Below, in pieces: positions 15,872 through 61,685 of a DNA stretch of 64,000 nt (positions are counted from its first letter, which is position 1; every line of letters starts with the position of its first letter). This stretch comes from a bacterium (GTDB taxonomy: Bacteria > RBG-13-61-14 > DATKZS01). Where the stretch lies: contig CAXXFL010000007.1 of NCBI GenBank assembly GCA_963674965.2, positions 345,034 through 409,033 of the forward strand. Direction: 5' to 3'. Below the pieces are notes generated by a model that saw only the letters and a program-made list of their open reading frames with translations, had not been told where the DNA came from and made no database searches. A program made the position numbers and the translations under genes.

Positions 15872-15943
15872 GATTCACCTCCATGGAGCGCCCGCCGGCG
15901 CATGGCTTATTATCGGGGCATTTGGCGTCGGGGTCAAAGAAGG

Positions 15944-45803: not shown

Positions 45804-45831
45804 GAAAATGGGCGGACGTTTCCGTCCGCCC
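45804..45831 (-). terminator. Rho-independent terminator
   Basis: Minus strand: GGGCGGACG-gaaa-CGTCCGCCC (9-bp perfect stem) followed by ATTTTCGTC, 22 nt after the stop at 45853. Confidence 0.7.
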
Positions 45832-45852
45832 AAGTTTGGCAGTCGCCTATTT

Positions 45853-46950: not shown

Positions 46951-47884
46951 CGAAAAATCCCCTTTCTTCAAGAGTGTTATGAAATCGCTCCTAAGCCTTT
47001 GATAATTTATTGGCCAACATGGTTGACGCCACTCTTTGCGCGCGCACCTTCTCCACTCCAGACTGAAAGCCCGGAGAAATTTGATAAATGATTGCCGTGT
47101 CAGTACTACCTTAATCTCAAGCGCTTTATAGAATCCGCGGCGGATACCCCCAGAAAGCATTGTAGTGATTAATGAGCGCTATTAGTAAATTTTATTATAA
47201 TGAATGTTATTATATTATATTTTACTGATTCTTATGTTTTATATATCTCATTTCGATAATGTTGTCAAGGATATTTTTTATAGTTATTAATTAAATTTGT
47301 TATGATTATCATTATTAATCATATAGATCAATTTCAAACCACTTGGTCAAGCCCCTGACAGGAGGCCAAGCAAGACGCAAGACGGCCGGTAATACTATGA
47401 TATCATACATTTTATTATTTTATTGAGCGCGCTTTTCCTCGCGCGAGCGCATGGATTCGATATTATAAATAATATAATCATATCATTTCTTTACAATTTT
47501 CGATCCTTGCCTTTAGCTCTCCACAAATCCCTCTATCCATTTCAAGCATTTCAATATAACTACCATTAATAGATAGTGATTTCATTACTCCGAACAAACT
47601 CTTCGCGTTAAGATAAAAATACATTTGTTTTACTATTATCCTGACCGTCTTCTCATGCGCCATAGACTTAAAAAGCGAATGTCAACGATCATTTCCTTTA
47701 CTAATCGCGTTATTTATCCAAAATTTCTAAAATACAATATATCAAAACTAAAACATGGATACTCTCCGCCCTTACGGCCTTTTATCAACGCGTTTTAAAA
47801 GTCGACCCAATTAAAAAGGCCCAGCCGGACTTTTGCGCTTGTCAGGCGTTATTGTACGGGTTAATCTTTATCAGGAGACACATT

Positions 47885-49306
47885 ATGCTTGACAAGGACA
47901 TGTTTCCCATAATCCTGGACAGCGTGGCGGAGGGCGTATTCACGGTGGACCTTGATTTCATCGTGACTTACTTCAACCGGGCGGCCGAGCGCATAACCGG
48001 CTTCACGTCCGAGGAGGCCGTTGGTCAGAGCTGCCACAACGTTTTCCGGGGCTCGGTCTGCCAGGGCGGCTGCGTCCTGAGGCGGACCCTTTCCACGGGG
48101 GAGACCATCAAGGGCATGGAGATCACCATCCTTAACCGGGAGAACAAGGAGATACCCATCAGCGTCTCGACCGCCCTTCTTCGCGACCGCCTTGGCCGGG
48201 TGGTCGGGGGCGTCGAGACCTTCCGGGACCTGTCGGACCTGGCGGCCCTTCGCGCCGAGGTGGGCCGGTCCTATCGCCTGGGTGACATGGTCAGCAAGAA
48301 CCACCGGGTGCAGGAGATATTCGCCCTGGCCCCGGACGTGGCCGAGAGTTCGGCCTCGGTCATGCTGCTGGGCGAGACGGGCTCGGGCAAGGAGGTCCTG
48401 GCCAGGGCCCTCCACGGCGAGGGCCCCAGGGCGGACAAGGCATTCGTGCCCGTGAACTGCGCGGCCCTTCCCGACGCCCTGCTCGAGGCCGAGCTTTTCG
48501 GCCACGCCGCGGGGGCCTTCACGGACGCTCGCCGGGCCAGGAAGGGCAGGTTCGCCGCGGCCCACGGCGGGACCCTATTCCTGGACGAGGTGGGCGACCT
48601 CTCGCCCGCCATGCAGGTCAAGCTCCTCCGCGTCCTGGAGGACAAGGCGGTCGAGCCGCTGGGATCGAACGAGCCGGAGCCGGCCGACGCCCGGATAATT
48701 TCGGCCACCCATCGGGACCCTCGCGAGCTTATGCGGCTCGGCCTTTTCAGGGAGGACCTCTTTTATCGGCTGAACACGGTGGTAATCGAAATCCCTCCCC
48801 TCCGGAAGAGGAGGGAGGACGTGCCGCTGCTGGTCGAGCGCTTTATCGAGCTTTTCAACTCGAGGACCGGCAAGACCATCGCGACCGCTTCCCCCGAGGC
48901 CATGGAGATACTTCTTCGCTACGCCTGGCCCGGCAACGTAAGGGAACTCAAGCACGCCATCGAGCACGCCTTCGTGCTCGCGAAGGGACAGACCATCGAG
49001 GCGTCCAATTTGCCCCGCGAGGTCGTGGCCGGAGACGCGACCCCCGACTTTTGCCGGCCGGCCGCGGTGGATAAAGAAGAGCCAGTCCGGGAATTCGCGC
49101 GGCCGACAACTTCCGTTCAAAAGAATAACGCGCCCCCTGGCCTGTCGGCCCTCGAGCTTGCCGAGCGTCCGGTCGTTTTAGCGGCCCTTGAAAGGAACCA
49201 CTGGAAGCGGGACGCGGCGGCAAAAGAGCTTGGTCTTTCCCGGGCCACTCTCTGGCGGAAGATGAAGAGGCTCGGGATCGACGACCCGAGGAGAAAAGAG
49301 AAATAG
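47885..49306 (+). CDS. Sigma-54-dependent transcriptional activator (PAS, AAA+, Fis HTH)
   Basis: ATG 47885 follows CAGGAGAC. PAS ([27 protein letters not shown]) with [60 protein letters not shown]. Confidence 0.9.
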
Positions 49307-49350
49307 AAAGACGCCCGGGGCCGCCGGGCGCCATGATAAGTCTTAATCCG

Positions 49351-50694
49351 TTATTTTTGCGCCCGGGCTTTTTTCCTTAGTTTTCGCATGATCATGAATT
49401 CCTTGACCACTCTTGGAAAGTTGACGTGGTTTTCGGTGGGCGCGATCTTGTGGCCCGAGATGATCTTGCCCGCCCGCCACAGGTTGTGCCCGGCGTAGCC
49501 CCGCATGACGTCGGTCAGCGCCATGTCCACCTCCACGGGTCCGAGAAGCCGCTGGAGCACCAGTCCCACGTCCAGGGGCCGGGGCATGCAGCCGGGAACG
49601 AACGTTCCCCTGTTCTTGTAGGGCTCGGCGCAGTCGCCCAGCACGATGGTGATCTCGGGGTCCAGGTCGTCGGGCACGTGCCCGATGGGTTTTCCCACGA
49701 TGAGGTTCATGGGCTGAAGGTTATCGGCCCCGTAGCGGTCAACGTAGGCGTCGACGGCCCCCTGCACCAGCCCGGCGCAGCCCCAGGGGCAGCAGAACTC
49801 GGCCCCCTCGAATACGCGCAGCCTGGGACTGAGGTCCTTTAAGGAAACCACGGGCCGCTTGAAGGGCCGGGCCCGGCCGAGCAACTCGGCCCCGTCGATA
49901 TCGATGCCCTCCATCTCGCCCGGGCCGTACCCGGCCTCGATGAGCAGCTTAAGGTGCTCGACCTCGTGGGGCTCGTAGCCGGTAAGGTGGCAGGCCACGC
50001 GGTCCACGGCCACGGCGTTGGTCCCGCCCAGAATCAGTCCCAGGTCGACGGGGTCGGCCATGAGCGGTCCCTGTCCCTCTCCCGCCACCACGCAGTCGGA
50101 GATTACCAGGTCCGGCGGCCTGACCTTGTAAAGGTCGGCCAGCTTCTTGTGCAGGTTGTGGTTGTGATGGAGGAGCCGGTCTCGCTGGCGGAGCATGCCC
50201 AGGTTGTTCTTGACGCTGAGGGTGACCTCGGCGAACATGTTGGTCTTTATCTTGGGCAGGCTGACGTAAAGGTCGGCGTCAAGCCACAGCCTCGGCACGG
50301 GGAACCTGGCCTGGATGAACGGGTCCTTGACCTCGACCTCGACGGTCTCGCGCTCGTCGAGGAAAACCGGCTCGGCCAGTCCCTTGAGCATGCCCATGAT
50401 GCCCACCGAGTAAAAGGACACCCGGCTGGGCCCGATCACGCTCGACTCGCACATGAGCACGCGCCTGGCCCCCAGCTCGCGCAGGGCCATGCACACGCCC
50501 ACGGCGAAGCGGGGCTGGGTGATGATGCCCCTCACGATCTCGCTCCGGGATGGATAGACGAAGCTGGGCTTGACCAGCACCGTCTTGCCGCCCGGGTCGA
50601 CGCCCGAGGCCTTGAAAATCTCCAAGGCGGTCGAGGCGATCTCCTTCTCGTCGTAGTCCTTTTGGTCCCTTAGAAAAACCCTGGGCTTATCCAT
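49351..50694 (-). CDS. DUF362 domain protein with a Cys-containing C-terminal extension
   Basis: The track ORF extends to 50922 and overlaps the gamma subunit. ATG 50694 (MDKPRVFL) follows GGAGG. VLVKPSF..., LPKIKTNMFAEVTLSVKNNLG, ISDCVVAGEGQGP are DUF362-like. CCPWGC lies in the extension. Confidence 0.7.
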   Translation of the reverse strand: MDKPRVFLRDQKDYDEKEIASTALEIFKASGVDPGGKTVLVKPSFVYPSRSEIVRGIITQPRFAVGVCMALRELGARRVLMCESSVIGPSRVSFYSVGIMGMLKGLAEPVFLDERETVEVEVKDPFIQARFPVPRLWLDADLYVSLPKIKTNMFAEVTLSVKNNLGMLRQRDRLLHHNHNLHKKLADLYKVRPPDLVISDCVVAGEGQGPLMADPVDLGLILGGTNAVAVDRVACHLTGYEPHEVEHLKLLIEAGYGPGEMEGIDIDGAELLGRARPFKRPVVSLKDLSPRLRVFEGAEFCCPWGCAGLVQGAVDAYVDRYGADNLQPMNLIVGKPIGHVPDDLDPEITIVLGDCAEPYKNRGTFVPGCMPRPLDVGLVLQRLLGPVEVDMALTDVMRGYAGHNLWRAGKIISGHKIAPTENHVNFPRVVKEFMIMRKLRKKARAQK

Positions 50695-50785
50695 CCTGAC
50701 CTCCACGCGCCCCTCCCGGGGGTCATGAAGCCTTAGTGGGGGCGCCTCGAACGAGCGGCGCCGGTTATGTATTTTCGCTTGGAGG

Positions 50786-51340
50786 TCAGACCATGCCGTT
50801 ATTGACGGCGTAGGCCTTGCCCTTCTCGAAGGCCTCCTTGGCCACGGCGAAGCGGTCCTCCCCCGAGTCCTTCTCCATGGCCTTGAACACCAGCTCCTCC
50901 GTGAGCACGCCGGAAATTTCACGGTAGGCCCCCAGCATGATCATGTTGGCCATCTGGGGTTTTCCCATCTCCTGGGCCAGGTCCGTTACCGGTATCCGTA
51001 AGGTCTTGTACTCGTCGGTCTCGGTCAGCTTGGTCACTATCGAGGAGTTGACCAGCAGCCGTCCCCCCGGGTTGACCTCCTTTTTCAGGCGGTTGTAGGC
51101 CCCCGACTCCATGGCGATGGCGTTGTCCGAGCTCGAGAGGATGGGAGCCGGTATCTCCTCGTCGGAGAAGATGACCGTGGCCAGGGCCGGTCCTCCCCTC
51201 TGGGTGGCCATGTAAATGGGGAAACGGGTGACGTACTTGTATTTCTCCGAGGCCGCCGCGGCGATGGCGTAGGCGATGGTAATGACGCCCTGCCCTCCGG
51301 TGCCCCCGACAATCAACTCGTGTCTTTTTTCTTCGCTCAT
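50786..51340 (-). CDS. 2-oxoacid:ferredoxin oxidoreductase, gamma subunit
   Basis: ELIVGGTGGQGVITIAYAIAAAA... is typical of POR/KOR/VOR gamma. Confidence 0.85.
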   Translation of the reverse strand: MSEEKRHELIVGGTGGQGVITIAYAIAAAASEKYKYVTRFPIYMATQRGGPALATVIFSDEEIPAPILSSSDNAIAMESGAYNRLKKEVNPGGRLLVNSSIVTKLTETDEYKTLRIPVTDLAQEMGKPQMANMIMLGAYREISGVLTEELVFKAMEKDSGEDRFAVAKEAFEKGKAYAVNNGMV

Positions 51341-51358
51341 GATCGCGTCTCCAGTCCG

Positions 51359-52120
51359 TCACGCTGGACGGTCGGTATTTTTGAACTCGCCGAGGGGGAA
51401 CTCCCCGATCAGCTTGTCGACCAGGGCCAGGCTGTCCTTGGGCTTGACGTGGTGCCCGGGCGGACAGGCCGAGAGTATCTCGACGAAGGAGTAGCCGGCG
51501 TTTTCCTTGTTCTTCAGGATGGCCGTTACCAGGGCCTTCCTGGTCTGGTTGTAACGCTTGTGAGTGTTGACCGCGCCGCGGAAGGAATAGACCACTCCCT
51601 TGACGTTGGTCATGAGCTCGGCCATGTGGATGGGAAAGCCGGCCACGTCCGTGTCCTTGCCCAGGGGCGTGGTCGGCGTGACCTGCCCGGGCAGCGACGT
51701 GGGGGCCGCCTGTCCGCCGGTGGTACCGAAGTTGGCGTTGTTGAGGAAGATGGTCATCAGCTTCTCGAAGCGGTTGGCCGCCCCCATGATCTCGCCCATG
51801 CCGATGGCCGACAGGTCCCCGTCTCCCTGCATGGTTATGACCAGCTTGTCCTTGCCGAGTGAACGCTTGACGCCGGTGGCCACCGCGGGGGCCCGGCCGT
51901 GAAGCGCCACCACTCCCTCCAGCCCCTTGATGTAGTGCATGCTCACCATCGAGCAGCCGATGCCGGTGACCAGCACCGAGTCCTGCACCACTCCCGTTTC
52001 CTCGAGGGCCTCGGCGAAGCAGCGCAGGATGGTCCCGTAATGGCAGCCGGGGCAGAAATGCGGCTGCATCATGGCGTTGAACAGCGCCGGGTTGCCGTGT
52101 CTGACTTTTTTATCGGTCAT
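51359..52120 (-). CDS. 2-oxoacid:ferredoxin oxidoreductase, beta (TPP-binding) subunit
   Basis: The real start MTDKKVRHG at 52120 forms an ATGA overlap with the alpha stop. FCPGCHYG, GIGCS, GDGD...GMGE TPP motif. Confidence 0.85.
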   Translation of the reverse strand: MTDKKVRHGNPALFNAMMQPHFCPGCHYGTILRCFAEALEETGVVQDSVLVTGIGCSMVSMHYIKGLEGVVALHGRAPAVATGVKRSLGKDKLVITMQGDGDLSAIGMGEIMGAANRFEKLMTIFLNNANFGTTGGQAAPTSLPGQVTPTTPLGKDTDVAGFPIHMAELMTNVKGVVYSFRGAVNTHKRYNQTRKALVTAILKNKENAGYSFVEILSACPPGHHVKPKDSLALVDKLIGEFPLGEFKNTDRPA

Positions 52121-53196
52121 ATCTCGATCCTCCTCAATTCCTCGATGATCGGCTTCGGATAGAGGAGCCCCATGCCGCCGGGCTGGTCGCGCTTGTCGAT
52201 GCCCAAAAAGGAAATGGGCTTTTTGCCCTCGAGCGCCCACTCGACGTCCTGGAGCATCTGTCCCTGGTTGTCCTCGACCACCAGCACGTGTTTGACGTTG
52301 GACGCGGCCTTTTGCAGGGCCTCCTTGGGGAAGGGGTAGAGAGTGATGGGACGGAAAAGTCCCACCTTCAATCCCTCGGCCCTCGCCTTGGCGATGGCCT
52401 CGAGGGACGTGCGGGCCGTCGAGCCCCACGACGCGATCAGTATGTCCGCGTCCTGGGTCATCTTCTCCTCGTAGCGTATTTCGTTTTGCTCGATCTGGTC
52501 GGTCTTCCTCTTGATGATGGGGAAATAGGAGGCGTAATTAAAGGGCATGAAGGAGTCCAGCACCAGGCGGGCGCCCTTCTTCTCGCCCGAGGTGGCGATG
52601 GCCCAGGTCTTTTTCGGCAGTTCCTCCTCGAAGTCGATGGTCTTGACGGTCATCATCTCGGCGCTTTGTCCGACGATGGCGTCGGGCAGGACCACGCAGA
52701 GTATCCTGTACTTGTCGGCCAGGTGGAAGGCCAGCTGCACCAGGTCGTGGCATTCCTGGGGGGACGACGGGGCGAGCACGATGCTTTTGCATCCGCCGTG
52801 TCCGGCGCTTTTGACGGCGAAGTTGTAGTCCGTCTGGGCGGTGGCGATGGACCCCGACCCCGGCCCTCCCCTTTGCACGTCGACCACCACGGCGGGAAGC
52901 TGCATGGCGTGCATGCAGGAGATGCCCTCCTGCATGAGGCTGTAGCCCGGGCTCGAGGTGGTGGTTATTCCTCTTTTGCCGGTGGCCACGAAGCCCAGCA
53001 GCATGTTAATGGAAGATATCTCGCTTTCCACCTGGACGAAGGTCCCGCCGTGCTCGGGCAGGTTCTTGGCGAACCAGGCCGGGATTTCGTTCTGCGGGGT
53101 AATGGGATACCCGCAAAAGAACTCGCACCCCGCGGCCACGGCGCCCCATCCGATGGCGTCGTTGCCGGTGCATAACATCCTTTTTTCTTCAATCAT
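52117..53196 (-). CDS. 2-oxoacid:ferredoxin oxidoreductase, alpha subunit
   Basis: The track starts at TTG 53211; ATG 53196 follows GGAGGA. GNDAIGWGAVAAGCEFFCGYPITPQNEI, TTTSSPGYSLMQEG. Confidence 0.85.
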   Translation of the reverse strand: MIEEKRMLCTGNDAIGWGAVAAGCEFFCGYPITPQNEIPAWFAKNLPEHGGTFVQVESEISSINMLLGFVATGKRGITTTSSPGYSLMQEGISCMHAMQLPAVVVDVQRGGPGSGSIATAQTDYNFAVKSAGHGGCKSIVLAPSSPQECHDLVQLAFHLADKYRILCVVLPDAIVGQSAEMMTVKTIDFEEELPKKTWAIATSGEKKGARLVLDSFMPFNYASYFPIIKRKTDQIEQNEIRYEEKMTQDADILIASWGSTARTSLEAIAKARAEGLKVGLFRPITLYPFPKEALQKAASNVKHVLVVEDNQGQMLQDVEWALEGKKPISFLGIDKRDQPGGMGLLYPKPIIEELRRIEI

Positions 53197-53217
53197 TTTT
53201 TCCTCCAGCAACCGGCG

Positions 53218-53448
53218 TCAAGACCCGGTCTCCTCCAGCGGCTCGTAGACGGTGACGGCGAAGTCCGGACAGAGCTTCACGCAGGCCCCGCACCCGGTGC
53301 AGTCCTCCGCCTTGACCATGGCCGGGTAGTAGTAGCCGGCCTGGTTGAAGTTTGAAGAAATCTCGAGACAATCCTTGGGGCAAGATATGACGCATATGCC
53401 GCATCCCTTGCATCTCTTGTCGTCGATGACGACCTCATATACAGCCAT
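53218..53448 (-). CDS. 2x[4Fe-4S] ferredoxin (OFOR delta subunit)
   Basis: CKGCGICVISCP and CTGCGACVKLCP. ATG 53448 follows AAAGGAGGA (the track starts at TTG 53463). Confidence 0.85.
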   Translation of the reverse strand: MAVYEVVIDDKRCKGCGICVISCPKDCLEISSNFNQAGYYYPAMVKAEDCTGCGACVKLCPDFAVTVYEPLEETGS

Positions 53449-53469
53449 GAGTCCTCCTTTCAATCGAAT

Positions 53470-55236
53470 TCAAAGCCTGACGTTGCCGTTGATTATGTCC
53501 GCGTAAAGGTCCTCCTCCAGGGGCACGTACTTCTTCGCGTGCCGGTCCCAGAAGTAAACCGGGTCCTTGATCTTGCCCGGGTCGAAGCCGTCCTTTCTCA
53601 GCCCGTACTTGATGTGCTTCATGGTCACCGTGGTGGGAAGCTCCTTGCAAAGGCGGATGAAAAGGGGACGGGCGTAATGGGGAAGACACTCGTCAACGTA
53701 CTCGGACACCGCGTCGCGGTCCCACTCGCAATCGAGCACCACCGCCGCCATGCCCGCCGCGCCCTCCTGGCCGGGAATCTGGACGCCGTAGACGTTAACG
53801 TCCGACACGCCCGGGCAGGAGTCCAGGATATACTCGACCTCCTTGGTGGCCACGTTCTCCGACTTCCAGCGGAAGGTGTCGCCCGACCGGTCCACGAAGC
53901 TTATCCAGTTGTCCTCATGCAGCTTGACCACGTCGCCGGTCACGAAGAACTCGTCCCACGAGTTGAAAACGCCCTTGACCAGTTTCTTCCTCGTCTCCTC
54001 GTCGTCGATGTATCCGTCAAAGCCAAGGAGGTTGAAGATGGAGTTGATGCGGCCGATGAGCATCCCTTCCTCGCCCTGCTCGACCTTGTCGCACCTTCCC
54101 TTTTCGTTCCTCATCAGGGCCTCGTTCTCCGGGTCCCATTTAACCACGTAGGCCTGGAGGGGCAGCAGCTTCCCCAGGAAACCGGGCCTGCCCTCGACGT
54201 TCATCACGCCCACGCTGGTCTCGGTGGCCCCGTAGAACTCGAATATCTTTTCGATCTCGAACCTCTTCTGGAAGGCCGTCCATATATTCGAGCGCAGGCC
54301 CACGGTGATGATCCTTTTGATCTTGTGCTTCTTCTCCTCGGGAGACTCGGGCTGGGCCATCAGGTACCTGGGCATCTCGCCGATAAATGTCGCGCCCGTG
54401 GCCCCGAAGCGGATGGCCTCCTTCCAGTAATCCGAGGCCGAGAACCAGCGCCGAAGGCCTATGGCCGCGCCCGTGGCCATGGACCCGCCCCATCCCACGA
54501 ACATGGCGATCGAGTGGTAAAGGGGAAGAGGAACGTAGATGACGTCGTCGTTCGAGAACTTGGACAGGGCGTAACCCAGGGCGTAGCCCGAGAAGAAAAC
54601 CCGGCGGTTGCTCACGCGCGCCGCCTTGGGAAGCCCCGTGGTGCCCGAGGTGTAGATGTTCATGATGTGGTCGTCGAACTTGGGCTTGACCTTGTTTTTC
54701 GGCTCCGAGGCGGCGGCGCAGGAAACGGCCTTGCCCAGGTCGCGCGCCGCGTAGTCGCCCTCCGCCTCGCCGTCCCAAATCCAGACGTCCGACTTGGCCA
54801 GGGGCACGTCGCTCATGACGGCGTCCACGTGCTCGATGAGCGAGCGGCCCGACACGATCCATTTGGGGCCGCAAATGGTAAAGGCGTGGACAAGGGTCTT
54901 CTGCCGCAGGTTGGTGTTGATAAGCGACGCGACCATGCCGATCTTGTTAAGGCCGATTATAAGGGCCAGGTACTCGGGGCAGTTCTCCATGTAGACCGCC
55001 GCCACGTCGCCCTTTTTTCCGCCCAGGGCCGTGAAGTGGTTGGCCACCTTGTTGGCCAGGACGTTGAGTTCCTTATAGGTGAGTTTCCGGTCCTCGAAGA
55101 ATATGGCCGTGTTGTCCGGCGTTTTGCTCGCCCACTTCTCGATGGTCGCGTACGTCGAGCACTCCCCTTTAATCAGGTGGTAAAAGGACACCAGAAGCCG
55201 CGCCCCTACCTTTACTTCCTCCCAACTAATAAACAT
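53470..55236 (-). CDS. AMP-forming acyl-CoA synthetase, FATP/very-long-chain type
   Basis: YTSGTTGLPKAARVSNRR, YGATE, GDV...DRSGDTFRWKSENV. The start MFISWEEV at 55236 was chosen over the Arg/Gly-rich extension. Confidence 0.85.
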   Translation of the reverse strand: MFISWEEVKVGARLLVSFYHLIKGECSTYATIEKWASKTPDNTAIFFEDRKLTYKELNVLANKVANHFTALGGKKGDVAAVYMENCPEYLALIIGLNKIGMVASLINTNLRQKTLVHAFTICGPKWIVSGRSLIEHVDAVMSDVPLAKSDVWIWDGEAEGDYAARDLGKAVSCAAASEPKNKVKPKFDDHIMNIYTSGTTGLPKAARVSNRRVFFSGYALGYALSKFSNDDVIYVPLPLYHSIAMFVGWGGSMATGAAIGLRRWFSASDYWKEAIRFGATGATFIGEMPRYLMAQPESPEEKKHKIKRIITVGLRSNIWTAFQKRFEIEKIFEFYGATETSVGVMNVEGRPGFLGKLLPLQAYVVKWDPENEALMRNEKGRCDKVEQGEEGMLIGRINSIFNLLGFDGYIDDEETRKKLVKGVFNSWDEFFVTGDVVKLHEDNWISFVDRSGDTFRWKSENVATKEVEYILDSCPGVSDVNVYGVQIPGQEGAAGMAAVVLDCEWDRDAVSEYVDECLPHYARPLFIRLCKELPTTVTMKHIKYGLRKDGFDPGKIKDPVYFWDRHAKKYVPLEEDLYADIINGNVRL

Positions 55237-55320
55237 GCCGACCGTCCTTTCATCGGCGCCCCGTTGGCGCCTTCTCCCGTTCTCCGCGCCGCTTTCGCGG
55301 CGGCCCATTCGGCCCCGATG

Positions 55321-56655
55321 CTAGAGTTGTTCCTTCATATAGGGGGTCCATTTCCTTTGTTTCGCCTTTTCGGCGACCACCTCGATAAACGCGTCTATCC
55401 TGCTCATGGTCTGGGCCTCGTTGAAGCTGGAGGGATCGACCATGTCGCTCTCGAGGAGGAGGCTGGGCGCTCCCAGTTCCTCCATCAAGGTATGCTGTAT
55501 CTCCATCTGGTTGACGTAAAGAGCCCGGCAGGTGGGCGTGTAGCTGAGGATGGCCCCGTCGCAGTTGTAGTCCACCACCGCCTTGACCACCGAGGCCACC
55601 ATGCCGTTCATGCCCCATTTCTCCGGCTCCCGGTTGGGGTTGCCGCTGGACTGGGCGGCGCAGCCGTAGGCCGTGTCGATGACCACTACCCCGCCCTTTT
55701 GCTCGAAGTAGTTGATCAGTCCCAGGTTGTACCAGAAGGGTATGCCGCTCCAGACCAGGCGGAACTTCTCATCCTCGACGATGCCGATCTTGTTATCCAT
55801 CCGCTCCTTGACCTCGGCCCGAAGCCGGGAGTAAAAGTCGTCGGCCAGGGGCGTGCCCGGCATGTACATCCCCGGAAACATGGCCGCGAAGGCGTCGGCC
55901 GACCCCATGGGCGTGGGAATGGCCTTCCTGTACTCGTTGATCTCCCGCCTGATTTTGCTGACCCTGCCGCTGGCCTTCTGAATCTCGGCCAGGCGCTTGG
56001 CGTCCATTTTTTTGCCGCACACGTCCTCGAGGAACTTGATATAGCCGGCGTAGTTCTGGCCGCCGAAGCCCATGGTATGGGGGGCGTCCTTCCTGCCTAT
56101 CTGGATGCCGGCCGTCTCCATGTCGCCGCCCGTGATGGTGGCGCCCTTCCTGCCGATGGGAGGCATCTCGGGGGCCTCGAGAACGTAAACGGGAACCTCC
56201 AGCATTTCGCCCATCAGCTCCCACCACTTGACCCGCGTGTCGCAAACGGCCGTGGTGGTGATGAGCATGTCGGGCCGCTTCATGCCGCCGAGGGGAGCGT
56301 CCTCGGGGAACCCCTCGAGGATGTAGCCGATGGTGATGCGGGCGTAGCCGCACATCTCGCGGGAAAGTCCCCACTCCTCGGCGCGGCTGATGAAGCGGAA
56401 CGGGTTGCCCCGGGTCGCCACCACCGTGCCGTACTGCTCCGGATAATAGGCCAGAACGTCCATGGCCTGCATGGGCTGCTTGGGCACCGCCACCCCGCAC
56501 CAGGCTATCTTCTGGCCCGGGTCCCCCACCTTCTCCGCCCGCTCGGCGTAATAGTCCTTGACTATCTGAGATATCTCCTGAGTGGTCTTAAGGTGCTTTT
56601 TGCCCCGCATGCGGTTGGCTTTTTTTACCTCTTCCGAGTCCTTTAATTCGCTCAT
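55321..56655 (-). CDS. 2-hydroxyacyl-CoA dehydratase / benzoyl-CoA reductase BcrC-BadD-HgdB family protein, larger subunit
   Basis: HGD-D-family pattern: KIAWCGVAVPKQPMQAMDVLAYYPEQYG, MCGYARITIGY, TTAVCDTRVKWWE, TPTCRALY. ATGA overlap with the upstream subunit. Confidence 0.8.
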   Translation of the reverse strand: MSELKDSEEVKKANRMRGKKHLKTTQEISQIVKDYYAERAEKVGDPGQKIAWCGVAVPKQPMQAMDVLAYYPEQYGTVVATRGNPFRFISRAEEWGLSREMCGYARITIGYILEGFPEDAPLGGMKRPDMLITTTAVCDTRVKWWELMGEMLEVPVYVLEAPEMPPIGRKGATITGGDMETAGIQIGRKDAPHTMGFGGQNYAGYIKFLEDVCGKKMDAKRLAEIQKASGRVSKIRREINEYRKAIPTPMGSADAFAAMFPGMYMPGTPLADDFYSRLRAEVKERMDNKIGIVEDEKFRLVWSGIPFWYNLGLINYFEQKGGVVVIDTAYGCAAQSSGNPNREPEKWGMNGMVASVVKAVVDYNCDGAILSYTPTCRALYVNQMEIQHTLMEELGAPSLLLESDMVDPSSFNEAQTMSRIDAFIEVVAEKAKQRKWTPYMKEQL

Positions 56656-57782
56656 TCCCCAAGTATCTCCGTGAACGCTTTTACGCGGTTGGTTATGGCC
56701 TCGTTAATCCCCGCCGTCTGGTCGCCCTGGATGTAGAGGACCTTGTGGCCCGCCTCCCGGGTCCGCTGGTTTAAAAGGGGATACTGGAACAACTGGGCGT
56801 CGCAGCAGCGCAGGATGTAGAAGATCACCCCGTCCACGGCGTAGTCGTCTCCCAGCGACAGGATATGCTCCCTCCTGGGCGCCATGGAGCCGACGCTTCG
56901 GGGACAGGGCAGCTTGTTAAGGTATCTTTTGGCCAGGGCGTCGATGGGCTTCTCGAGGTCTTCTCCCACCTCGTCCCAGAAATAGCGGCTGCCGGTGCAC
57001 ACGTCGTCGGCCACCACCCAGGCTCCCGAGTCCTCGATCGCCCCGATCAGGTCCAGGTCCTCGAGCATGCTGGCGGTCACGAGCACGCGGGGGCGTCTTT
57101 CCAGGCTCGACTCTTTCCCCTCCATTTCCGCCAGGTAATCCCTTGCCCATCGGTTGAAGTCTTCCCTCGGGGCCAGGATCGAGGCCAGGGCGACGGTAAA
57201 GGCGTCGCGGCCGCTGATGACGGGAGGGTTCGAGGCCCGGAGCCGGTAGACGCGCTTCATGAGCCTCCTGGTCTCGTCGTATATCTTGATGGCCTCCCGC
57301 AGGGAGTCGTCGGATATCTCAGTCCCCAGGTGGTTCTCGAGCTCCTTTTTCAGGCGCTTTATCTCGCCCACCATGACCGCCTGGGCGTTCTTGTCGAACA
57401 CCTTGTGGGGCACCCACACGTAATGTATGAAATCGGGCGATTCCATGCGGTAGGCCCACAGGTCGTACATCTTGGTTATCACGTCGCAGGCGTGAGGCAC
57501 GACCAGCCCGTCCAGGTAGTCGAAGACTCCCTGCAGGGCCTGCTCGAAACAGCGTCGGGAAAAGGAGCAGACGTTGGACTGGAGGTGGTTGTCCGCTTTT
57601 TCCACGTTGCCCACCCCGCCGGTTATACGGATGGTATCGTAGCCCGCCGCGTAAAGGACCTCCTCGGGCACGTAGTCGCAGAAGTAACCCGCCAGCTTGC
57701 GGCCGGTCTCCTTTTTACGCCCGGCTATCCACTCGTGACGATTGGACACGACCTCGCGAAAGGGCGCCATTTTGTCGCTCAT
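56652..57782 (-). CDS. 2-hydroxyacyl-CoA dehydratase family protein, smaller subunit
   Basis: KLAGYFCDYVPEEVLYAAGY, SNVCSFSRRC, VPHACDVITKMYDLW, DDVCTGSRYF, LRCCDAQ. ATG 57782 forms an ATGA overlap with the ligase stop (the track starts at GTG 57788). Confidence 0.8.
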   Translation of the reverse strand: MSDKMAPFREVVSNRHEWIAGRKKETGRKLAGYFCDYVPEEVLYAAGYDTIRITGGVGNVEKADNHLQSNVCSFSRRCFEQALQGVFDYLDGLVVPHACDVITKMYDLWAYRMESPDFIHYVWVPHKVFDKNAQAVMVGEIKRLKKELENHLGTEISDDSLREAIKIYDETRRLMKRVYRLRASNPPVISGRDAFTVALASILAPREDFNRWARDYLAEMEGKESSLERRPRVLVTASMLEDLDLIGAIEDSGAWVVADDVCTGSRYFWDEVGEDLEKPIDALAKRYLNKLPCPRSVGSMAPRREHILSLGDDYAVDGVIFYILRCCDAQLFQYPLLNQRTREAGHKVLYIQGDQTAGINEAITNRVKAFTEILGE

Positions 57783-59605
57783 CTCCACGTCTCCAATACC
57801 TGCTCCCTCCCGTTTTGCCTGAACTCGTTCACCAGCGATTCCAAGTCGGATTTCATAAAGGGCCTGTACCCGTCAAGGCCGCGCCTGGTGTGCCAAATGG
57901 TCCCCTCCGGCGCGTACTCGAGGTTGTAGTACTCGTGCTTGAGAGGACGGACCAGAATCTTCTGGGTGCGGGTGTACTCGAAATCGCTCACCACCCTGAC
58001 GAAGTCGGGTTTCCATTTTCTGTCCATGTCCCCGCCCGAGGCCTGTCTTTCCATGTAGTCGTTGAAGGCGGCGGGATCGAAGGATTTTCCCTCCTTCATC
58101 TGGAGGGCGACCATGACCCACTCGTCCGACACCGGGCAGGGCACTCCGAAGGCCACGGCCAGCTCGGCGTCGGGAAAGGCGGCCGCCACCGAGGCCACGT
58201 TCTCGGCCGAGAAGTTCTCTCCGTCCTTTCTGATCCAGTCGTCGGTCCTGCCGTCGAAATACAGATACCTTTTATTCGCCACCACCCTGATGTGGCCCAG
58301 GTCTCCCGAGTGGTAGACGCCGTCGCGTATTTTCGAGGAGGTGGCCTCGGGGTTGTTATGGTAGCCCTCGAAGGAGGGCAGGGCCCCGCCCTCCCTTACT
58401 ATCTCTCCCACCGCCTCCTGGTAGTTGAGGAAGCGGCCCTTCTCGTCGTACTCGGCGGGCGGGCACTCCCGGCCGTGCTCGTTGAAAATCTTCACGTTGC
58501 GGTCCATGATGAAGCCCACGCTTCCGGGCGGGTCTCCCAGCCTTCTCACGGTGGCGATGGCCATCTCGGTGGTGCCGTATCCCTCCATCATGTCCTCGAG
58601 CCCGAAGTAGCGGGTGAACTTTTCCTGGTCCACCTGGGAGGCCCCGTTGCCGTAGGCCACGCGGAGCTTGTTGGCCGGGCTTTGGGCCACGTTTCTTACG
58701 ATCTCCTCCTCGCTCCCGTACTTTTTCTCGAGGGCCAGGATAACGTAATGCACCGGCTGGCCCACGTAGTTCCAGTAGGTCACCCCGTATTTCAGGACGT
58801 CCTCGGAGAAGCCGCCGGCGCTGAAGCGGTCGCGGAGCACGGTCGAGGCGTTCCAGTGAAAGGCGCTCATCACGCCCAGGAACATGGCGTTCGAGTGGAA
58901 AAGGGGCATGCAGACGTAGCCCCGGTCGTTCTCCTTGAGCTGGAGGGCCACGCCCGTGGCCATGCCCAGGTTCATGAGCTTGCCTTGCGAGTTCCTGATG
59001 CCCTTGGGCAGCCCGGTGGTCCCCGAGGTGTAGATGATCATGAGGGTCGAGTCCATGGCCACCTCGGCCTCGGGCCGGACGAGGGCCTCGTCGCCCATCT
59101 CGCCTCTCAAGTCCGAAACCGCTTTGTCCAGGGGGGGAAGATCGGGGGGCACGAAGCCCTCCTTGCCCGTGTCCACCAGATAGGTCCGCTCGGGCGTTAT
59201 GTACTCGAGGTTGTCCATGACGTCCATTACGCGGTCCTGGTGGCGGTCGTCGGTGATGAGGCTCCTGGCCTCGGACTGGTTGAGGACGTCCGCCAGCACC
59301 TGCCCCCTCAGGCCGGCGTTGACCCCGAACAGGGTCCCGCCGTTCAGGGCGCAGCCTCCATAGGCGAAGATAAAGGAGGGGTGGTTGTCCATGAACACGG
59401 CGGCGCGGGGGGCCCGATTGCCTCCGCCCGCTTTATTATGGTCCCTCCTGAAGAGGTGGGCGAAGGTGGAGGACTCCCGGTAAAAGTCCGCGTAAGCGTA
59501 CTCCTTGTCCTGGAAGATGAAAAAGGTCTTGTCCTTTATTTTTTCGTCCAGGGCCTTGGCCTCCATCTGGTCGGCCACGGTCCTTTGAAACTTCTTTTCC
59601 GCCAT
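57779..59605 (-). CDS. AMP-forming acyl-CoA synthetase
   Basis: The track ORF extends to 60070, antisense-overlapping the panE-like gene. ATG 59605 (MAEKKFQ) follows GAAGGGA. IIYTSGTTGLPKGIRNSQ, GYGTTE. Confidence 0.85.
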   Translation of the reverse strand: MAEKKFQRTVADQMEAKALDEKIKDKTFFIFQDKEYAYADFYRESSTFAHLFRRDHNKAGGGNRAPRAAVFMDNHPSFIFAYGGCALNGGTLFGVNAGLRGQVLADVLNQSEARSLITDDRHQDRVMDVMDNLEYITPERTYLVDTGKEGFVPPDLPPLDKAVSDLRGEMGDEALVRPEAEVAMDSTLMIIYTSGTTGLPKGIRNSQGKLMNLGMATGVALQLKENDRGYVCMPLFHSNAMFLGVMSAFHWNASTVLRDRFSAGGFSEDVLKYGVTYWNYVGQPVHYVILALEKKYGSEEEIVRNVAQSPANKLRVAYGNGASQVDQEKFTRYFGLEDMMEGYGTTEMAIATVRRLGDPPGSVGFIMDRNVKIFNEHGRECPPAEYDEKGRFLNYQEAVGEIVREGGALPSFEGYHNNPEATSSKIRDGVYHSGDLGHIRVVANKRYLYFDGRTDDWIRKDGENFSAENVASVAAAFPDAELAVAFGVPCPVSDEWVMVALQMKEGKSFDPAAFNDYMERQASGGDMDRKWKPDFVRVVSDFEYTRTQKILVRPLKHEYYNLEYAPEGTIWHTRRGLDGYRPFMKSDLESLVNEFRQNGREQVLETWR

Positions 59606-59646
59606 GTCTGGTCCCTTCGCGGTTATTTTTATTGGGGGTGGGCCGT

Positions 59647-60624
59647 TCAGGCCTCGCCCTTTTCCCTGGCCACCTCGGCCAGGCGCTTGGCCTCGATGGT
59701 CTTGACCAGCCCATACATGGTCTCGTTGACCGGCGTGGGCACGCCGTGCTCCTGGCCCAGCTTGATGATGGCGCCGTTTATATAGTCGATCTCGGTGACG
59801 CGTCCGGCCTCGATATCCTGGAGCATGCTCGGCTTGGGGGGGGAGAAGGTCTTGACCTTGGCCGCCATCTTCGCGCCCATCATGATCATGTCGATGAAGT
59901 TGCGCTGGTGCTTGATCTTCACGCCCATGGCGTCGGACAGGGCGAAGTACTCGTTGGCCAGGCCCTTGAAGACGGGCCCGATGGACTCGGTGTTGGCCAT
60001 GTCGATGACGTTCATGCCCGTGACCGCGGCGGTGCAGTTGAGGACGGCGTTCCACAGTATCTTGTTCCACACCACCTCGTCGGCGGTGTCGTAAATCTTC
60101 ACCGGCAGCTTGAGGGCCTTGAGGGCCGCGGCCAACTCCTCGAGGCGGGGCGTCTTGCCGCCGGCCATGGGGCCCAGGTCCACGCCGTCGGCGCCGGGGA
60201 AATAGACGATGTGAGTGGGGGCCTCGACCAGGAAGTTATGGGCCGTGGTCACGGCCACAATGCGCTCGGGCTTGCCCACGGCCTCCTCGATGACCTTGAG
60301 GTTTCCGTAGCCGTTCTGGAAGCTGGCCACCATGGTATCGTCGCCGATCACGGACCTGGCGCCCTCAACGGCGGCCTTGGTGTGGTAGGCCTTGGTGCCC
60401 AGTATGACCACGTCCGGCTTGCCGGCGTCGGCCAGGTTGGCGGTGATGTTGACCTTGTACTCGCCGCTTTTACCGCCGGCCTGGCTGATGGTAAGGCCCT
60501 TTTCCTTTACCTGCCTGACGTAGTCCTCGCGCACGTCGTAAAGGGTCACGTCGGCCCCGGCCTCAGTTAAAAAGGCCCCGACGAAACCGCCCAAAGCTCC
60601 CGCGCCAACGATCAATAACTTCAT
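59647..60624 (-). CDS. Ketopantoate reductase (PanE/ApbA) family NAD(P)-dependent 2-oxoacid reductase
   Basis: MKLLIVGAGALGGFVGAFL Rossmann start, VILGTKAYHT, QNGYGN, ApbA_C-like C-terminus. RBS GGAGGT. Confidence 0.8.
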   Translation of the reverse strand: MKLLIVGAGALGGFVGAFLTEAGADVTLYDVREDYVRQVKEKGLTISQAGGKSGEYKVNITANLADAGKPDVVILGTKAYHTKAAVEGARSVIGDDTMVASFQNGYGNLKVIEEAVGKPERIVAVTTAHNFLVEAPTHIVYFPGADGVDLGPMAGGKTPRLEELAAALKALKLPVKIYDTADEVVWNKILWNAVLNCTAAVTGMNVIDMANTESIGPVFKGLANEYFALSDAMGVKIKHQRNFIDMIMMGAKMAAKVKTFSPPKPSMLQDIEAGRVTEIDYINGAIIKLGQEHGVPTPVNETMYGLVKTIEAKRLAEVAREKGEA

Positions 60625-60740
60625 GTTCTTACCTCCATGCGTCTGATGGATAATCGCGCCGTCCCGTGCCCTTTGGGCCTTGGAACGTTAGCCGGTTTTA
60701 ATTAATGTCCGGCTTATCTCAATTTTAAATATCTTAGCCT

Positions 60741-60928
60741 GGAGCCTCTTGCAAAATTCCCGCTTTGGAGTGCGGCGGCTCGACGCCGCTTTTCTTCCGA
60801 GCGGCTTGACGCGAGGCAAGCCGGTGTATTAATAGGCCTTGTCAAGCCAAAGCCCTCGAAAGCGGTCTCAAGCGACCGCACTCCAAAGCGGCTATGCCGC
60901 AAAGAAAAGGACTTTTGCAAGAAGCTCC
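60741..60928. repeat. Roughly 190-nt imperfect inverted repeat that folds as a long rod-like hairpin (candidate structured RNA or palindromic element)
   Basis: GGAGC/GCTCC (5 bp), CTTGCAAAA/TTTTGCAAG (9 bp) and GCTTTGGAGTGCGG/CCGCACTCCAAAGC (14 bp), all perfect. They enclose about 100 nt with further stems (GGCTTGAC/GTCAAGCC, GCCGCT/AGCGGC, GCGGTC/GACCGC). Confidence 0.6.
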
Positions 60929-60952
60929 CTAGTCTCGTATTTCTTATCCATA

Positions 60953-60981
60953 AATATATCAAACGTTATTTCCAGTTCAAC
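60953..60981 (+). repeat. Direct repeat copy 1 (AATATATCAAACGTTAT + tTccAgtTCAAC)
   Basis: 17 of 17 identical to copy 2 over AATATATCAAACGTTAT, then 7 of 12. Confidence 0.6.
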
Positions 60982-61190: not shown

Positions 61191-61670
61191 TCAAGGAAAC
61201 CAAAGATCGCGCTCCACGTTTTCCAGATTTCCCTTTTCGTCAATGGTCCAGACGTCGCATTGGAGGTCGGGGTCAACGTTGCCGACGCCGTATATGGGAA
61301 AGCCCGTCCTGGAAGGAGTGGGAGGATCGAAATCGCATACCCAAAATTTCCGCGTCGCCTCGATCATATCGGACCCGCAATAGTAGCTATAACTGATGTT
61401 TCCCTCAGGTCCCCAGCCCAAGGCGGAAAAACAATCCGGCCCCGAGGCGAAAACGCCGTTAGCCGCGTGATAATTTTCCTGGGCCTTGTAGATGTCCCGG
61501 AGAATGTGTTTAACCTCGGCTTGAACGGTCTTGGCGTTTTGATCCTCGGCCACCTTGACCACGAACATGATAACCAATACCCAGATTATGGGGGGAACCT
61601 GTATCGAAACGGCGATTATAAGATATCGCCTCTTTTTGGAAGGCGCCCGGTATTGCCCCATCTGGCCCAT
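61191..61670 (-). CDS. Pilin-like protein with a degenerate prepilin leader
   Basis: The track starts at TTG 61676; ATG 61670 lies 15 nt after the upstream stop. Basic leader and hydrophobic helix (KKRRYLIIAVSIQVPPIIWVLVIMFVV), then AKTVQAEVKHILRDIYKAQENYHAANGVFAS...LGWGPEGNISYSYY. This resembles the alpha1-C/alpha-beta loop of type IVa pilins such as M. xanthus PilA, as recalled. Confidence 0.55.
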   Translation of the reverse strand: MGQMGQYRAPSKKRRYLIIAVSIQVPPIIWVLVIMFVVKVAEDQNAKTVQAEVKHILRDIYKAQENYHAANGVFASGPDCFSALGWGPEGNISYSYYCGSDMIEATRKFWVCDFDPPTPSRTGFPIYGVGNVDPDLQCDVWTIDEKGNLENVERDLWFP

Positions 61671-61685
61671 CCGCAAAGGTCCTTG

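Follow-up and report, generated by a model that had tools for sequence, protein, structure and literature searches.

A recurrent ten-gene cluster combining a BzdN-like, predicted double-cubane subunit of the benzoyl-CoA reductase/2-hydroxyacyl-CoA dehydratase family with acyl-CoA ligases, a 2-oxoacid:ferredoxin oxidoreductase and a DUF362 protein

The 64,000-nt stretch of DNA examined here (in what follows, the window: positions 345,034 to 409,033, forward strand, of contig CAXXFL010000007.1 in GenBank assembly GCA_963674965.2, from a bacterium of the GTDB lineage RBG-13-61-14) carries ten consecutive genes on its minus strand, between 49351 and 60624 (Table 1). In the direction of reading they specify a PanE/ApbA-family oxidoreductase; an AMP-forming ligase (ligase 1); two adjacent HGD-D proteins, that is, members of the family (PF06050) of the 2-hydroxyacyl-CoA dehydratases (HADs) and benzoyl-CoA reductases (BCRs); a second AMP-forming ligase (ligase 2); the delta, alpha, beta and gamma subunits of a 2-oxoacid:ferredoxin oxidoreductase (OFOR); and a protein of the DUF362 family. 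(A note on nomenclature: "alpha" and "beta" without further qualification denote the two HGD-D subunits.) Open reading frames (ORFs) were called anew, with starts set by ribosome-binding sites and gene coupling, and all ten Pfam assignments are well above gathering scores. The families, gene order and exact ATGA overlaps of an earlier, sequence-only reading of this DNA (ligase 1/beta at 57779-57782, beta/alpha at 56652-56655, OFOR alpha/OFOR beta at 52117-52120) are confirmed in this way; the tight spacing that it claimed also holds, the remaining gaps measuring 41, 12, 6, 6, 18 and 91 nt. GC content at third codon positions is 0.77-0.90 across the ten genes. As to gene starts, seven of the products (all but OFOR delta, beta and gamma) were looked up in a public protein collection: six are exact matches to proteins of a single 1.0-Mb contig, while OFOR alpha, whose gene was assigned a TTG start, has no exact match there. 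The product of a neighboring DUF7065/DUF7064 gene is matched exactly on the same contig.

Table 1. Genes and other features of the ten-gene locus (window coordinates)
Feature	Position	Strand	Details
DUF7065/DUF7064 protein	61686-62567	minus	293 aa; Pfam; conserved neighbor of the HGD-D pair
Promoter-like sequence P1	61093-61120	minus	TTGACA, 16 nt, TATATT; TG extended -10; 11/12 matches in a consensus scan
Promoter-like sequence P2	60953-60980	minus	Duplicated P1 core: TTGAAC, 16 nt, TATATT
Leader hairpin	60739-60928	minus	~190 nt, near-perfect; between P2 and the panE start
PanE/ApbA	59647-60624	minus	325 aa
AMP ligase 1	57779-59605	minus	608 aa
HGD-D beta-like	56652-57782	minus	376 aa
HGD-D alpha-like	55321-56655	minus	444 aa
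AMP ligase 2	53470-55308	minus	612 aa
OFOR delta	53218-53463	minus	81 aa
OFOR alpha	52117-53211	minus	364 aa; TTG start
OFOR beta	51359-52120	minus	253 aa
OFOR gamma	50786-51340	minus	184 aa
DUF362	49351-50694	minus	447 aa
Intrinsic-terminator-like hairpin	49310-49332	minus	9-bp stem, 8 GC pairs, then T-run TTTCTATTTC; 19 nt past the DUF362 stop

The ten genes are bracketed exactly by a promoter core that two related loci share and by a hairpin resembling an intrinsic terminator. The promoter-like sequence P1, upstream of panE, is read as a strong, sigma-70-like promoter of the extended -10 type; its core, TTGAC-N-ATAAC(A/G)TTTG(A/T)TATA, also occurs, together with an upstream T-run, 5' of panE in the homologous loci L005 and L001 (L numbers designate such loci throughout). 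We infer from this layout that the ten genes are co-transcribed as one unit. Two sub-modules can be told apart in their order, the first made up of PanE, ligase 1 and the HGD-D pair, the second of ligase 2, the OFOR and DUF362.

Is the unit real? A survey of gene neighborhoods finds the complete ten-gene order again in L001-L003, L005 and L015, which are independent contigs from metagenomes and metagenome-assembled genomes (MAGs). L012 keeps the order from ligase 1 onward, where its contig ends (its DUF362 protein is only 53% identical), and L006, L016 and L017 follow the same order as far as their contigs reach. Protein identities across these loci are 53-85%, and the recurrence of the order at such distances in several independent contigs argues that the unit is indeed real. 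The PanE gene adjoins the HGD-D pair in every clade locus of at least 73% identity whose contig extends far enough upstream, the divergent L013 included, although only alpha is present there. At 58-66% identity (Ca. Abyssobacteria, Chloroflexota and others; L004, L009, L014) the HGD-D pair stands alone among unrelated genes, with no OFOR. The clade as a whole is rare: about 55 protein clusters at 58% identity or more among 5.8 billion.

What kind of enzyme do alpha and beta form? They are paralogs (PF06050: beta 298.6 bits, alpha 182.3 bits), and neither passes any of the NCBIfam models for HADs, BCRs or the double-cubane cluster protein (DCCP; NF040772). Beta scores 203.8 bits with the double_cubane model (cutoff 350), 190.7 with HadC (NF052456; 700), 189.8 with BzdN (453.8) and 167.9 with BcrC (421.2); alpha scores 142.6 with HadB (NF052455; 750), 90.8 with BzdO (448.6), 68.8 with BcrB (486.6) and 67.9 with double_cubane. 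Sequence matches in the PDB are BzdN (181 bits), HadC (162), MbdN (94) and DCCP (92) for beta, and HadB (116), MbdO (83) and BzdO (76) for alpha. The ligand residues are more telling. The [8Fe-9S] double-cubane of BzdN is held by Cys36, 73, 100, 263, 293 and 327, and of this cluster only a [4Fe-5S] remnant is left in HADs (PMC11971306). Beta has all six cysteines, in the window and in 15 other clade loci (16 of 16 aligned); HadC has Pro and Ala at BzdN positions 36 and 263. Clade beta subunits also keep Arg53, Arg267 (except in L014), a Lys at the position of Arg290, and His330 (except in the window and L001). In alpha, the residues aligned with the cluster cysteines of HadB and BzdO are C102, C138 and C376, all three of them invariant among 11 clade members; W52 and E73 correspond to BzdO W46 and E65, residues that HadB has as well; an invariant R141 takes the position of BzdO H131; and about 40 amino acids (residues 160-203) are inserted relative to HadB. 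We accordingly propose, on these residue patterns, that beta would be an electron-storage subunit with a six-Cys [8Fe-9S] double-cubane, and alpha a catalytic subunit with a three-Cys [4Fe-4S] cluster having an open iron site. The cofactors to be expected are thus those of BzdNO rather than HadBC, and the pair is no typical 2-hydroxyacyl-CoA dehydratase: the six-Cys signature that beta shares with BzdN and DCCP is missing from HadC, and the HAD models are far from reached. It should be added that MbdN, which belongs to a genuine class I BCR, lacks two of the six double-cubane ligands, so that the double-cubane sets the clade apart from known HADs and is not proof of reductase chemistry.

Phylogeny does not take sides. 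Neighbor-joining trees (200 bootstraps), which are rough because they combine fetched-locus sequences with partial reference sequences transcribed from HMMER alignments, make the window clade monophyletic at 100%, and in the alpha tree the references group apart from it (94%). Identity between the clade and the Had, Bzd, Mbd and DCCP references is 24-26% for alpha and 23-28% for beta, and the trees contain no supported grouping of the clade with HadBC, BzdNO or MbdNO. The firm grouping with BcrB/C that had been named beforehand as telling against a dehydratase thus does not appear, and neither does a grouping with the HADs.

Every characterized member of the BCR/HAD family needs an activating ATPase of the ASKHA type, the "archerase" (PMC7317905). 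A profile hidden Markov model (HMM) built from four BcrAD_BadFG ATPases of outgroup loci recovers all five such proteins in L010, L034 and L035. The 64-kb window yields no match to it, nor do the clade loci (27, many of them short) up to 10 kb to either side, and most of the larger window ORFs were also scanned with Pfam and gave no such ATPase. As far as these 27 loci (sampled up to 10 kb each side) can tell, the absence appears to be a trait of the whole clade: either the ATPase gene is unlinked or electrons are delivered differently. With the required ATPase missing from every sampled neighborhood, the module is, by the known rules, not the self-contained one for which it had been taken. 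The nearest sampled relatives outside the clade, themselves uncharacterized, are differently equipped. In L034 (a metagenome contig) and L035 (a MAG contig), whose alpha subunits are 38-40% and beta subunits 35-38% identical to those of the clade, two BcrAD_BadFG genes flank the HGD-D pair in a BCR-like four-gene layout (ATPase, HGD-D, HGD-D, ATPase), alpha precedes beta, beta lacks the Cys263 equivalent, and there are no genes for PanE, ligases, OFOR or DUF362; in L010 a single ATPase gene lies downstream of the pair.

These features bring up a first alternative: the pair might be, instead of a 2-hydroxyacyl-CoA dehydratase, a BCR-like two-electron reductase of the BzdNO type, acting on aromatic, alicyclic or other unsaturated acyl-CoAs provided by the ligases. 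The OFOR and its delta subunit would then serve only to regenerate the electron donor, as 2-oxoglutarate:ferredoxin oxidoreductase (KGOR) re-reduces ferredoxin for benzoyl-CoA reductase in Thauera aromatica (PMC6500515), and PanE would act later or be unrelated. The shared double-cubane signature, BzdN as the best PDB match of beta, and the invariant alpha equivalents of BzdO W46 and E65 (both also present in HadB) are in line with such an enzyme, as are the two ATPase genes flanking the outgroup pairs, just as in class I BCRs, and the crotonase genes near the operon in L017 and L019. The ATPase and catalytic modules of BZD-type enzymes, moreover, form only transient complexes (PMC11971306). 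The lack of ATPase genes in the clade loci nonetheless speaks against it, since the characterized class I BCRs all encode them beside the catalytic genes. The Bzd and Bcr equivalog models are far from reached, the His131 of BzdO is replaced by an invariant Arg, alpha scores higher with HadB, the double-cubane (vide MbdN) is no class marker of reductases, and the tight linkage to PanE is left unexplained. On balance we consider a reductase of this kind rather unlikely, if a serious contender.

The PanE homolog (ApbA 113.8 bits, ApbA_C 112.8 bits) falls within subfamily TIGR00745 (230 vs. a cutoff of 141.35) and passes none of the ketopantoate-reductase equivalog models (169 vs. 252, for example); physiological reduction of ketopantoate is therefore not implied. 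Its PDB matches are all labelled 2-dehydropantoate 2-reductase, and 3wfi/3wfj, the D-mandelate dehydrogenase of the PanE family, are among them. The family includes D-2-hydroxyacid dehydrogenases, or broad alpha-keto-acid reductases, with 2-ketoisocaproate among their substrates (bioRxiv 10.1101/2024.01.05.573888). The homolog in the operon is probably an NAD(P)H-dependent D-2-hydroxyacid dehydrogenase/2-oxoacid reductase; the proposal that a PanE-type enzyme stands in for one of the LdhA/FldH type is in keeping with what is documented for the family.

Ligase 1 (PF00501, 159 bits) has as its best NCBIfam match the steroid-22-oyl-CoA synthetase CasI (328 bits), followed by FadD1/FadD17, all below cutoff, and FATP2 as its best PDB match (119.5 bits); we propose that it may serve as a 2-hydroxyacid-CoA ligase. 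Ligase 2 (PF00501 and AMP-binding_C) scores 625.0 with the long-chain-acyl-CoA synthetase model NF006134, which is exactly the cutoff of 625 and thus borderline, and 404 with FadD6; it matches human FATP2 in the PDB over residues 54-605 (383 bits, E 2.6e-113), and its sequence marks it as an enzyme of the FATP/very-long-chain acyl-CoA synthetase type. That two AMP-forming ligases would take the place of a CoA-transferase agrees with the gene content. Searches with Pfam (for the activator, with the HMM also) found no CoA-transferase, activator, thioesterase or linked Acd/Etf within the operon.

That both ligases lie in the FATP/long-chain acyl-CoA synthetase groups argues against small, amino-acid-derived substrates, and it is here that the Stickland-like fermentation of the sequence-only reading runs into difficulty. 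On that proposal a 2-oxo acid generated by transamination is partly oxidized by the OFOR and partly reduced, through PanE, a ligase and a HAD-type dehydratase, to the enoyl-CoA. The best match of alpha, HadB, is an enzyme of the leucine pathway, the OFOR most resembles VorB, whose substrates are branched-chain 2-oxo acids, PanE-family enzymes do reduce 2-ketoisocaproate (bioRxiv 10.1101/2024.01.05.573888), and a class I/II aminotransferase is encoded in the window, at 14714-15871. That gene is 35 kb away and unlinked, however, and the neighbors of the operon are lipid and acyl-CoA genes, not genes of amino-acid metabolism. The ligases resemble FATP2/FadD6 (ligase 2) and FadD1/FadD17/CasI (ligase 1); AMP-forming ligases waste the energy that fermenters save with CoA-transferases; beta is not of the HAD type; and neither an Acd/Etf in the operon nor an activator was found. 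An amino-acid fermentation is therefore a weak proposition, and we regard it as improbable.

The OFOR is, to judge by its sequence, a standard four-subunit enzyme, closest to VorB. The delta subunit belongs to the Fer4 families (a 2x[4Fe-4S] ferredoxin-like protein; OGOR_delta, with 63.5 bits, is its best NCBIfam match). OFOR alpha has POR_N (156 bits) and PFOR_II (72 bits) and comes close to the VorB subfamily model NF005507 (392.7 vs. a cutoff of 399). OFOR beta has TPP_enzyme_C, for thiamine-diphosphate binding, and scores 105-112 bits with models for beta subunits of 2-oxoacid:ferredoxin oxidoreductases; OFOR gamma matches PF01558 (POR, 109 bits). Its suggested role as a source of low-potential electrons has its precedent in the KGOR of Thauera aromatica (PMC6500515).

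The DUF362 protein is of a long form, in which PF04015 spans only residues 39-236. Its AlphaFold2 model (pLDDT 93.2) predicts a LarA-like two-domain fold: the top 18 Foldseek matches in the PDB are all LarA-family racemases (probability 0.99-1.00, E 1e-6 to 7e-4, TM 0.31-0.40). The resemblance is exclusively to this superfamily of nickel-pincer-nucleotide 2-hydroxyacid racemases and epimerases (5HUQ, 6C1W, 9EIA) and exists at the level of the fold only, with a TM of about 0.4; searches of the PDB with the single sequence or with a profile did not detect LarA. It agrees with the placement of DUF362 and DUF2088 in a common Pfam clan, CL0471 (PMC11770544). Unlike LarA, the protein has a four-Cys motif in its C-terminal domain (C355 and C369 invariant, C302 and C306 at least 90% conserved), which resembles cluster motifs of the hydrogenase-small-subunit/NuoB type: its second half, "GDC...PGCPP" (GDC...PGC-x-P), weakly matches the motif that binds the proximal cluster in small subunits of [NiFe]-hydrogenases. 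We infer a putative Fe-S site. No Lar maturation genes (larB, larC, larE) were seen among the window ORFs scanned with Pfam, which comprised most of the larger ones. Elsewhere, in L011 (2975-11389) and L036 (3079-9878), long-form DUF362 proteins of about 50% identity are encoded in a conserved cluster with an aldehyde:ferredoxin oxidoreductase (AFOR), a FAD amine-oxidase-like protein, a 187-188-aa protein and an AMP ligase; the link of DUF362 to acid activation and to ferredoxin-dependent redox enzymes is thus a recurrent one.

How might these parts work together? The scheme that we prefer, tentatively and at somewhat less than even chances, is a ligase-fed route for lipophilic 2-oxo/2-hydroxy acids through a BCR/HAD-type radical enzyme, with the OFOR supplying electrons and the ATPase encoded elsewhere. 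All of its steps are read from the order of the genes and the families of their products: 1) The PanE-type enzyme would reduce a 2-oxo acid to the (R)-2-hydroxy acid. 2) Ligase 1, whose gene is translationally coupled to that of beta, would convert this to the 2-hydroxyacyl-CoA. 3) By ketyl-radical chemistry at the [4Fe-4S] active site of alpha, and with the [8Fe-9S] cluster of beta as electron store, the alpha/beta enzyme would take off the 2-hydroxyl; the product would be the 2-enoyl-CoA, or the saturated acyl-CoA if the two-electron store were used stoichiometrically. 4) The VOR-like OFOR would oxidize a 2-oxo acid to acyl-CoA and CO2, reducing its ferredoxin-like delta subunit and so providing the electrons. 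5) The FATP-type ligase 2 would bring free acids into the CoA pool. 6) The LarA-fold and probably Fe-S DUF362 protein would act on the 2-hydroxy or 2-oxo acid or relay electrons. 7) An ATP-driven archerase, encoded elsewhere in the genome, would give the energy boost.

Four considerations favor a 2-hydroxyacyl-CoA as substrate: the tight linkage to PanE, in a family that includes D-2-hydroxyacid dehydrogenases; the higher scores of alpha with HadB (143 bits vs. 91 for BzdO and 69 for BcrB with the models, 116 vs. 83 for MbdO and 76 for BzdO in the PDB); the expectation that a stoichiometric reductase would carry ATPase genes, of which none were found in the sampled neighborhoods; and the predicted fold of DUF362, which is that of 2-hydroxyacid racemases. 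That the substrates are lipophilic is suggested by the FATP2-like ligase 2, by the likeness of ligase 1 to FadD1/FadD17/CasI, and by the neighbors (acyl-CoA dehydrogenases (ACADs), crotonases, SCP2, an APH kinase); the OFOR as electron donor follows the Thauera aromatica precedent (PMC6500515). The earlier notion of a module leading from 2-oxo acid to enoyl-CoA finds support as regards its families, coupling, PanE and a role for the OFOR, and needs revision as regards the type of enzyme formed by the HGD-D pair, Stickland-like metabolism and self-containment. Several matters weigh against the preferred scheme. No ATPase gene appears in the window or in the clade loci as far as sampled, whereas known HADs usually encode their activator next door. 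The double-cubane signature has so far been found only in reductases (BzdN, DCCP) and not in HADs (PMC11971306, PMC7317905), and the two nearest-outgroup loci sampled, at 38-40% identity, have the BCR-like four-gene layout with two ATPases. The operon contains neither an enoyl-CoA reductase/Etf nor an aminotransferase. All the homologs come from MAGs or metagenomes. Finally, the scheme has no need of a second ligase.

The second ligase does find employment if the ten genes are read as one linear pathway for anaerobic elongation by one carbon, with the OFOR as synthase. Ligase 2 would provide an acyl-CoA, which the OFOR would carboxylate reductively, with reduced ferredoxin and CO2, to a 2-oxo acid longer by one carbon; PanE would then yield the (R)-2-hydroxy acid, ligase 1 the 2-hydroxyacyl-CoA, and alpha/beta the 2-enoyl-CoA. 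The effect would be to move a 3-methyl branch, which blocks beta-oxidation, to position 4, as in phytanate-type isoprenoid acids. The appeal of this pathway is that every gene is used once, that both ligases are explained and run in the ATP-consuming direction, and that the gene order splits into two sub-modules. Reductive carboxylation of branched acyl-CoAs is the work of VOR-type enzymes in rumen bacteria and methanogens, and the OFOR is VOR-like (392.7 with the VorB model); FATP2 activates phytanic and pristanic acids, and ligase 2 is FATP2-like; genes of beta-oxidation are recurrent neighbors. The case is nevertheless drawn from gene content, and the cost is high, at four ATP equivalents for each carbon added. 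An oxygen-independent route for such substrates already exists in the Atu/Liu pathways, which handle 3-methyl-branched acyl-CoAs by carboxylation of the methyl branch. L018 lacks ligase 2, moreover, and the 58-66% clade has no OFOR. One-carbon elongation, too, must be rated a proposal of low probability.

The same gene set can also be read backwards, as an anaerobic alpha-oxidation: alpha/beta would hydrate the enoyl-CoA at C2, ligase 1 running in reverse would free the CoA, PanE would oxidize the 2-hydroxy acid, and the OFOR would decarboxylate the 2-oxo acid to an acyl-CoA shorter by one carbon. HAD reactions are reversible, and ACAD genes lie nearby in L001 and L018. Yet oxidation of a 2-hydroxy acid by NAD(P)+ is thermodynamically unfavorable, the AMP-forming ligase would have to operate in reverse, and Pfam finds neither a thioesterase nor a CoA-transferase in the operon. 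A literature search for a link to anaerobic alpha-oxidation returned nothing. Of the readings considered, this one seems to us highly improbable.

Speculation can be carried one step further by joining two unconventional propositions: an archerase-free, third functional type of BCR/HAD enzyme, and the operon as a route for anaerobic one-carbon elongation. The double-cubane may then be charged directly by the OFOR, its delta subunit and the LarA-fold Fe-S protein, and the 2-hydroxyl may be taken off long or branched 2-hydroxyacyl-CoAs, possibly reductively. If this were true, beta-oxidation could bypass the 3-methyl branches of isoprenoid acids. The combination is quite improbable.

To return to the preferred ligase-fed route and its radical enzyme: how far do known systems resemble it? 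The component families are all known, as are the supply of electrons to the BCR/HAD family by OFOR and ferredoxin and the PanE-type hydroxyacid dehydrogenases. The Had system of Clostridioides difficile (LdhA, HadA, HadI, HadBC, AcdB/EtfBA; 3O3M) also has an adjacent PF06050 pair, encoded alongside a D-2-hydroxyacid dehydrogenase; alpha shares the three cluster cysteines of HadB, which is its best-scoring characterized match. Identity is only about 26%, however, beta has the six-Cys signature where HadC has a [4Fe-5S] site, a HadI-type activator and Acd/Etf are absent, AMP ligases replace HadA, a PanE-type enzyme replaces one of the LdhA type, and the OFOR and DUF362 are extra. BzdNOPQ of Aromatoleum sp. 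CIB (8S02; PMC11971306) has the combination of a six-Cys [8Fe-9S] N-type with a three-Cys [4Fe-4S] O-type subunit that the ligands predict here, along with the Trp46 and Glu65 that have equivalents in alpha, and a CoA ligase and a ferredoxin-reducing OFOR likewise accompany the BCR of Thauera aromatica. In contrast with BzdNOPQ, to which identity is 24-28%, the operon has no BzdPQ-like ATPase genes and no genes for a dienoyl-CoA hydratase, Had or Oah; it has Arg in place of BzdO His131, and its PanE and DUF362 are without Bzd counterparts. DCCP/DCCP-R of Carboxydothermus hydrogenoformans (6ENO; PMC7317905) provides the top model for beta, and its six coordinating cysteines are present there. 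DCCP is nonetheless a homodimer with a double-cubane in each subunit, while the operon has double-cubane ligands in beta only and a single three-Cys site in alpha; and the CoA channel of DCCP is blocked (PMC7317905), whereas the operon co-encodes two CoA ligases and has no adjacent ATPase gene. The literature searched yielded no paper describing this gene combination. A BzdN-type double-cubane subunit in a HAD-like context, accompanied by a LarA-fold protein, by ligases instead of a transferase and by no linked ATPase, has no described counterpart.

The BCR/HAD radical enzymes comprise three structurally characterized types, HAD, class I BCR and DCCP, and a recent structural paper proposes that the family evolved by stepwise loss of double-cubane sub-clusters. 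With a predicted BzdN-type double-cubane in a HAD-like context of 2-oxoacid reduction and CoA-ester formation, the clade may represent a new functional type, or else an intermediate. Since a linked ATPase is consistently lacking, one has to ask by what means the low-potential electron reaches the enzyme. The operon also offers a concrete, assayable context for the large DUF362 family, whose member here has a predicted LarA fold and a Cys motif. In sediments, 2-hydroxy or branched lipid acids might be turned over anaerobically by such a route. All these points are read from the sequences of uncultured organisms.

Some of the homologous loci depart from the standard layout. L007, L018 and L019 have variant gene orders; L018 is without ligase 2. 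In L017 (11474-13119) and L019 (11358-12997) a D12-class adenine (Dam) methyltransferase gene and a 242-aa gene sit between the alpha gene and ligase 2, and in L019 three more small genes (15031-16573) separate ligase 2 from OFOR delta; these insertions look like selfish elements that the operon tolerates. In L007 (6903-8922) and L019 (19705-21314) two tandem genes for NMO/FabK-like FMN oxidoreductases follow OFOR gamma, at the position of DUF362. They may be its non-homologous replacement, which would hint at an enoyl-reducing role. L013 (8757-11981) has an alpha subunit 79% identical to that of the window and no beta gene, with ApbA upstream and a LUD-domain (lactate-utilization-type) gene downstream; this could, as one option, be an assembly artifact.

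The leader region of the operon has peculiarities of its own. The P1 core is duplicated at P2, as a 21-nt repeat (61109-61089/60969-60949) that is 95% identical, and between P2 and panE lies a long hairpin, evident from self-complementary BLAST matches and from the predicted RNA fold of 60625-60960 (-140.7 kcal/mol, z = -7.9). The hairpin belongs to no Rfam family (nothing in the window reached Rfam gathering thresholds) and was not found when the homologous loci L001-L010 were tested for it. It might act as an attenuator, or else be a small palindromic element that was inserted here. An 82-aa ORF at 60714-60962, located inside the hairpin and without a Pfam match, is for these reasons taken to be spurious. 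Downstream, a convergent gene (47852-49306) for a PAS/sigma-54 activator was considered as a regulator of the operon and rejected: there is no TGGCAC-N5-TTGC site, at up to 2 mismatches, 5' of the operon (the total for the window is at chance level), and the gene is not conserved in L001-L010.

Recurrent neighbors of the operon elsewhere are ACADs (near it in L001 and L018), crotonases (L017, L019), a thioesterase-like protein, an APH kinase and, in one contig lineage, SCP2. Homologs of the DUF7065/DUF7064 protein, 54-69% identical, are encoded within 2-7 kb of the HGD-D pair in L001-L004, L006, L017 and L019; any functional tie of the gene to the operon would be tentative, and a literature search for DUF7064 returned nothing. 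The gene is part of a trio, with those of an APH-family kinase and of a 162-169-aa protein without annotation, that is repeatedly met beside the pair (L001 3235-5693; L004 1085-3539; L017 2174-4655; L019 2012-5044); in Ca. Abyssobacteria, where the HGD-D pair has no other operon genes with it, the distance is about 5 kb. The trio is reminiscent of the hydroxyacyl-CoA kinases LvaA and ACAD10/11. The window keeps only the DUF7065/DUF7064 gene of the trio; the ORFs at 62695-63927 and 61191-61676, considered for the APH and 168-aa genes, are not homologs.

A few other features of the window and its host may be recorded. The Lon protease of the host, an uncultured bacterium, is most like those of Geobacteraceae (63-67% identical) and other "Deltaproteobacteria," and is 74-79% identical to MAG proteins. 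The stretch at 45800-47800, next to the sigma-54 activator gene, has a GC content of 0.435 (about 0.60 elsewhere) and contains a 435-aa ORF without a Pfam match (45853-47160, minus strand); the stretch probably represents a foreign island. About 45 kb from the operon, two ACAD-like genes (1382-2515 and 2520-4031) lie beside a Tat-signal sulfatase gene (4098-5564); the window has no other ACADs. A radical SAM protein with a B12-binding domain is encoded at 10865-12454, downstream of a TonB-dependent receptor (8589-10691).

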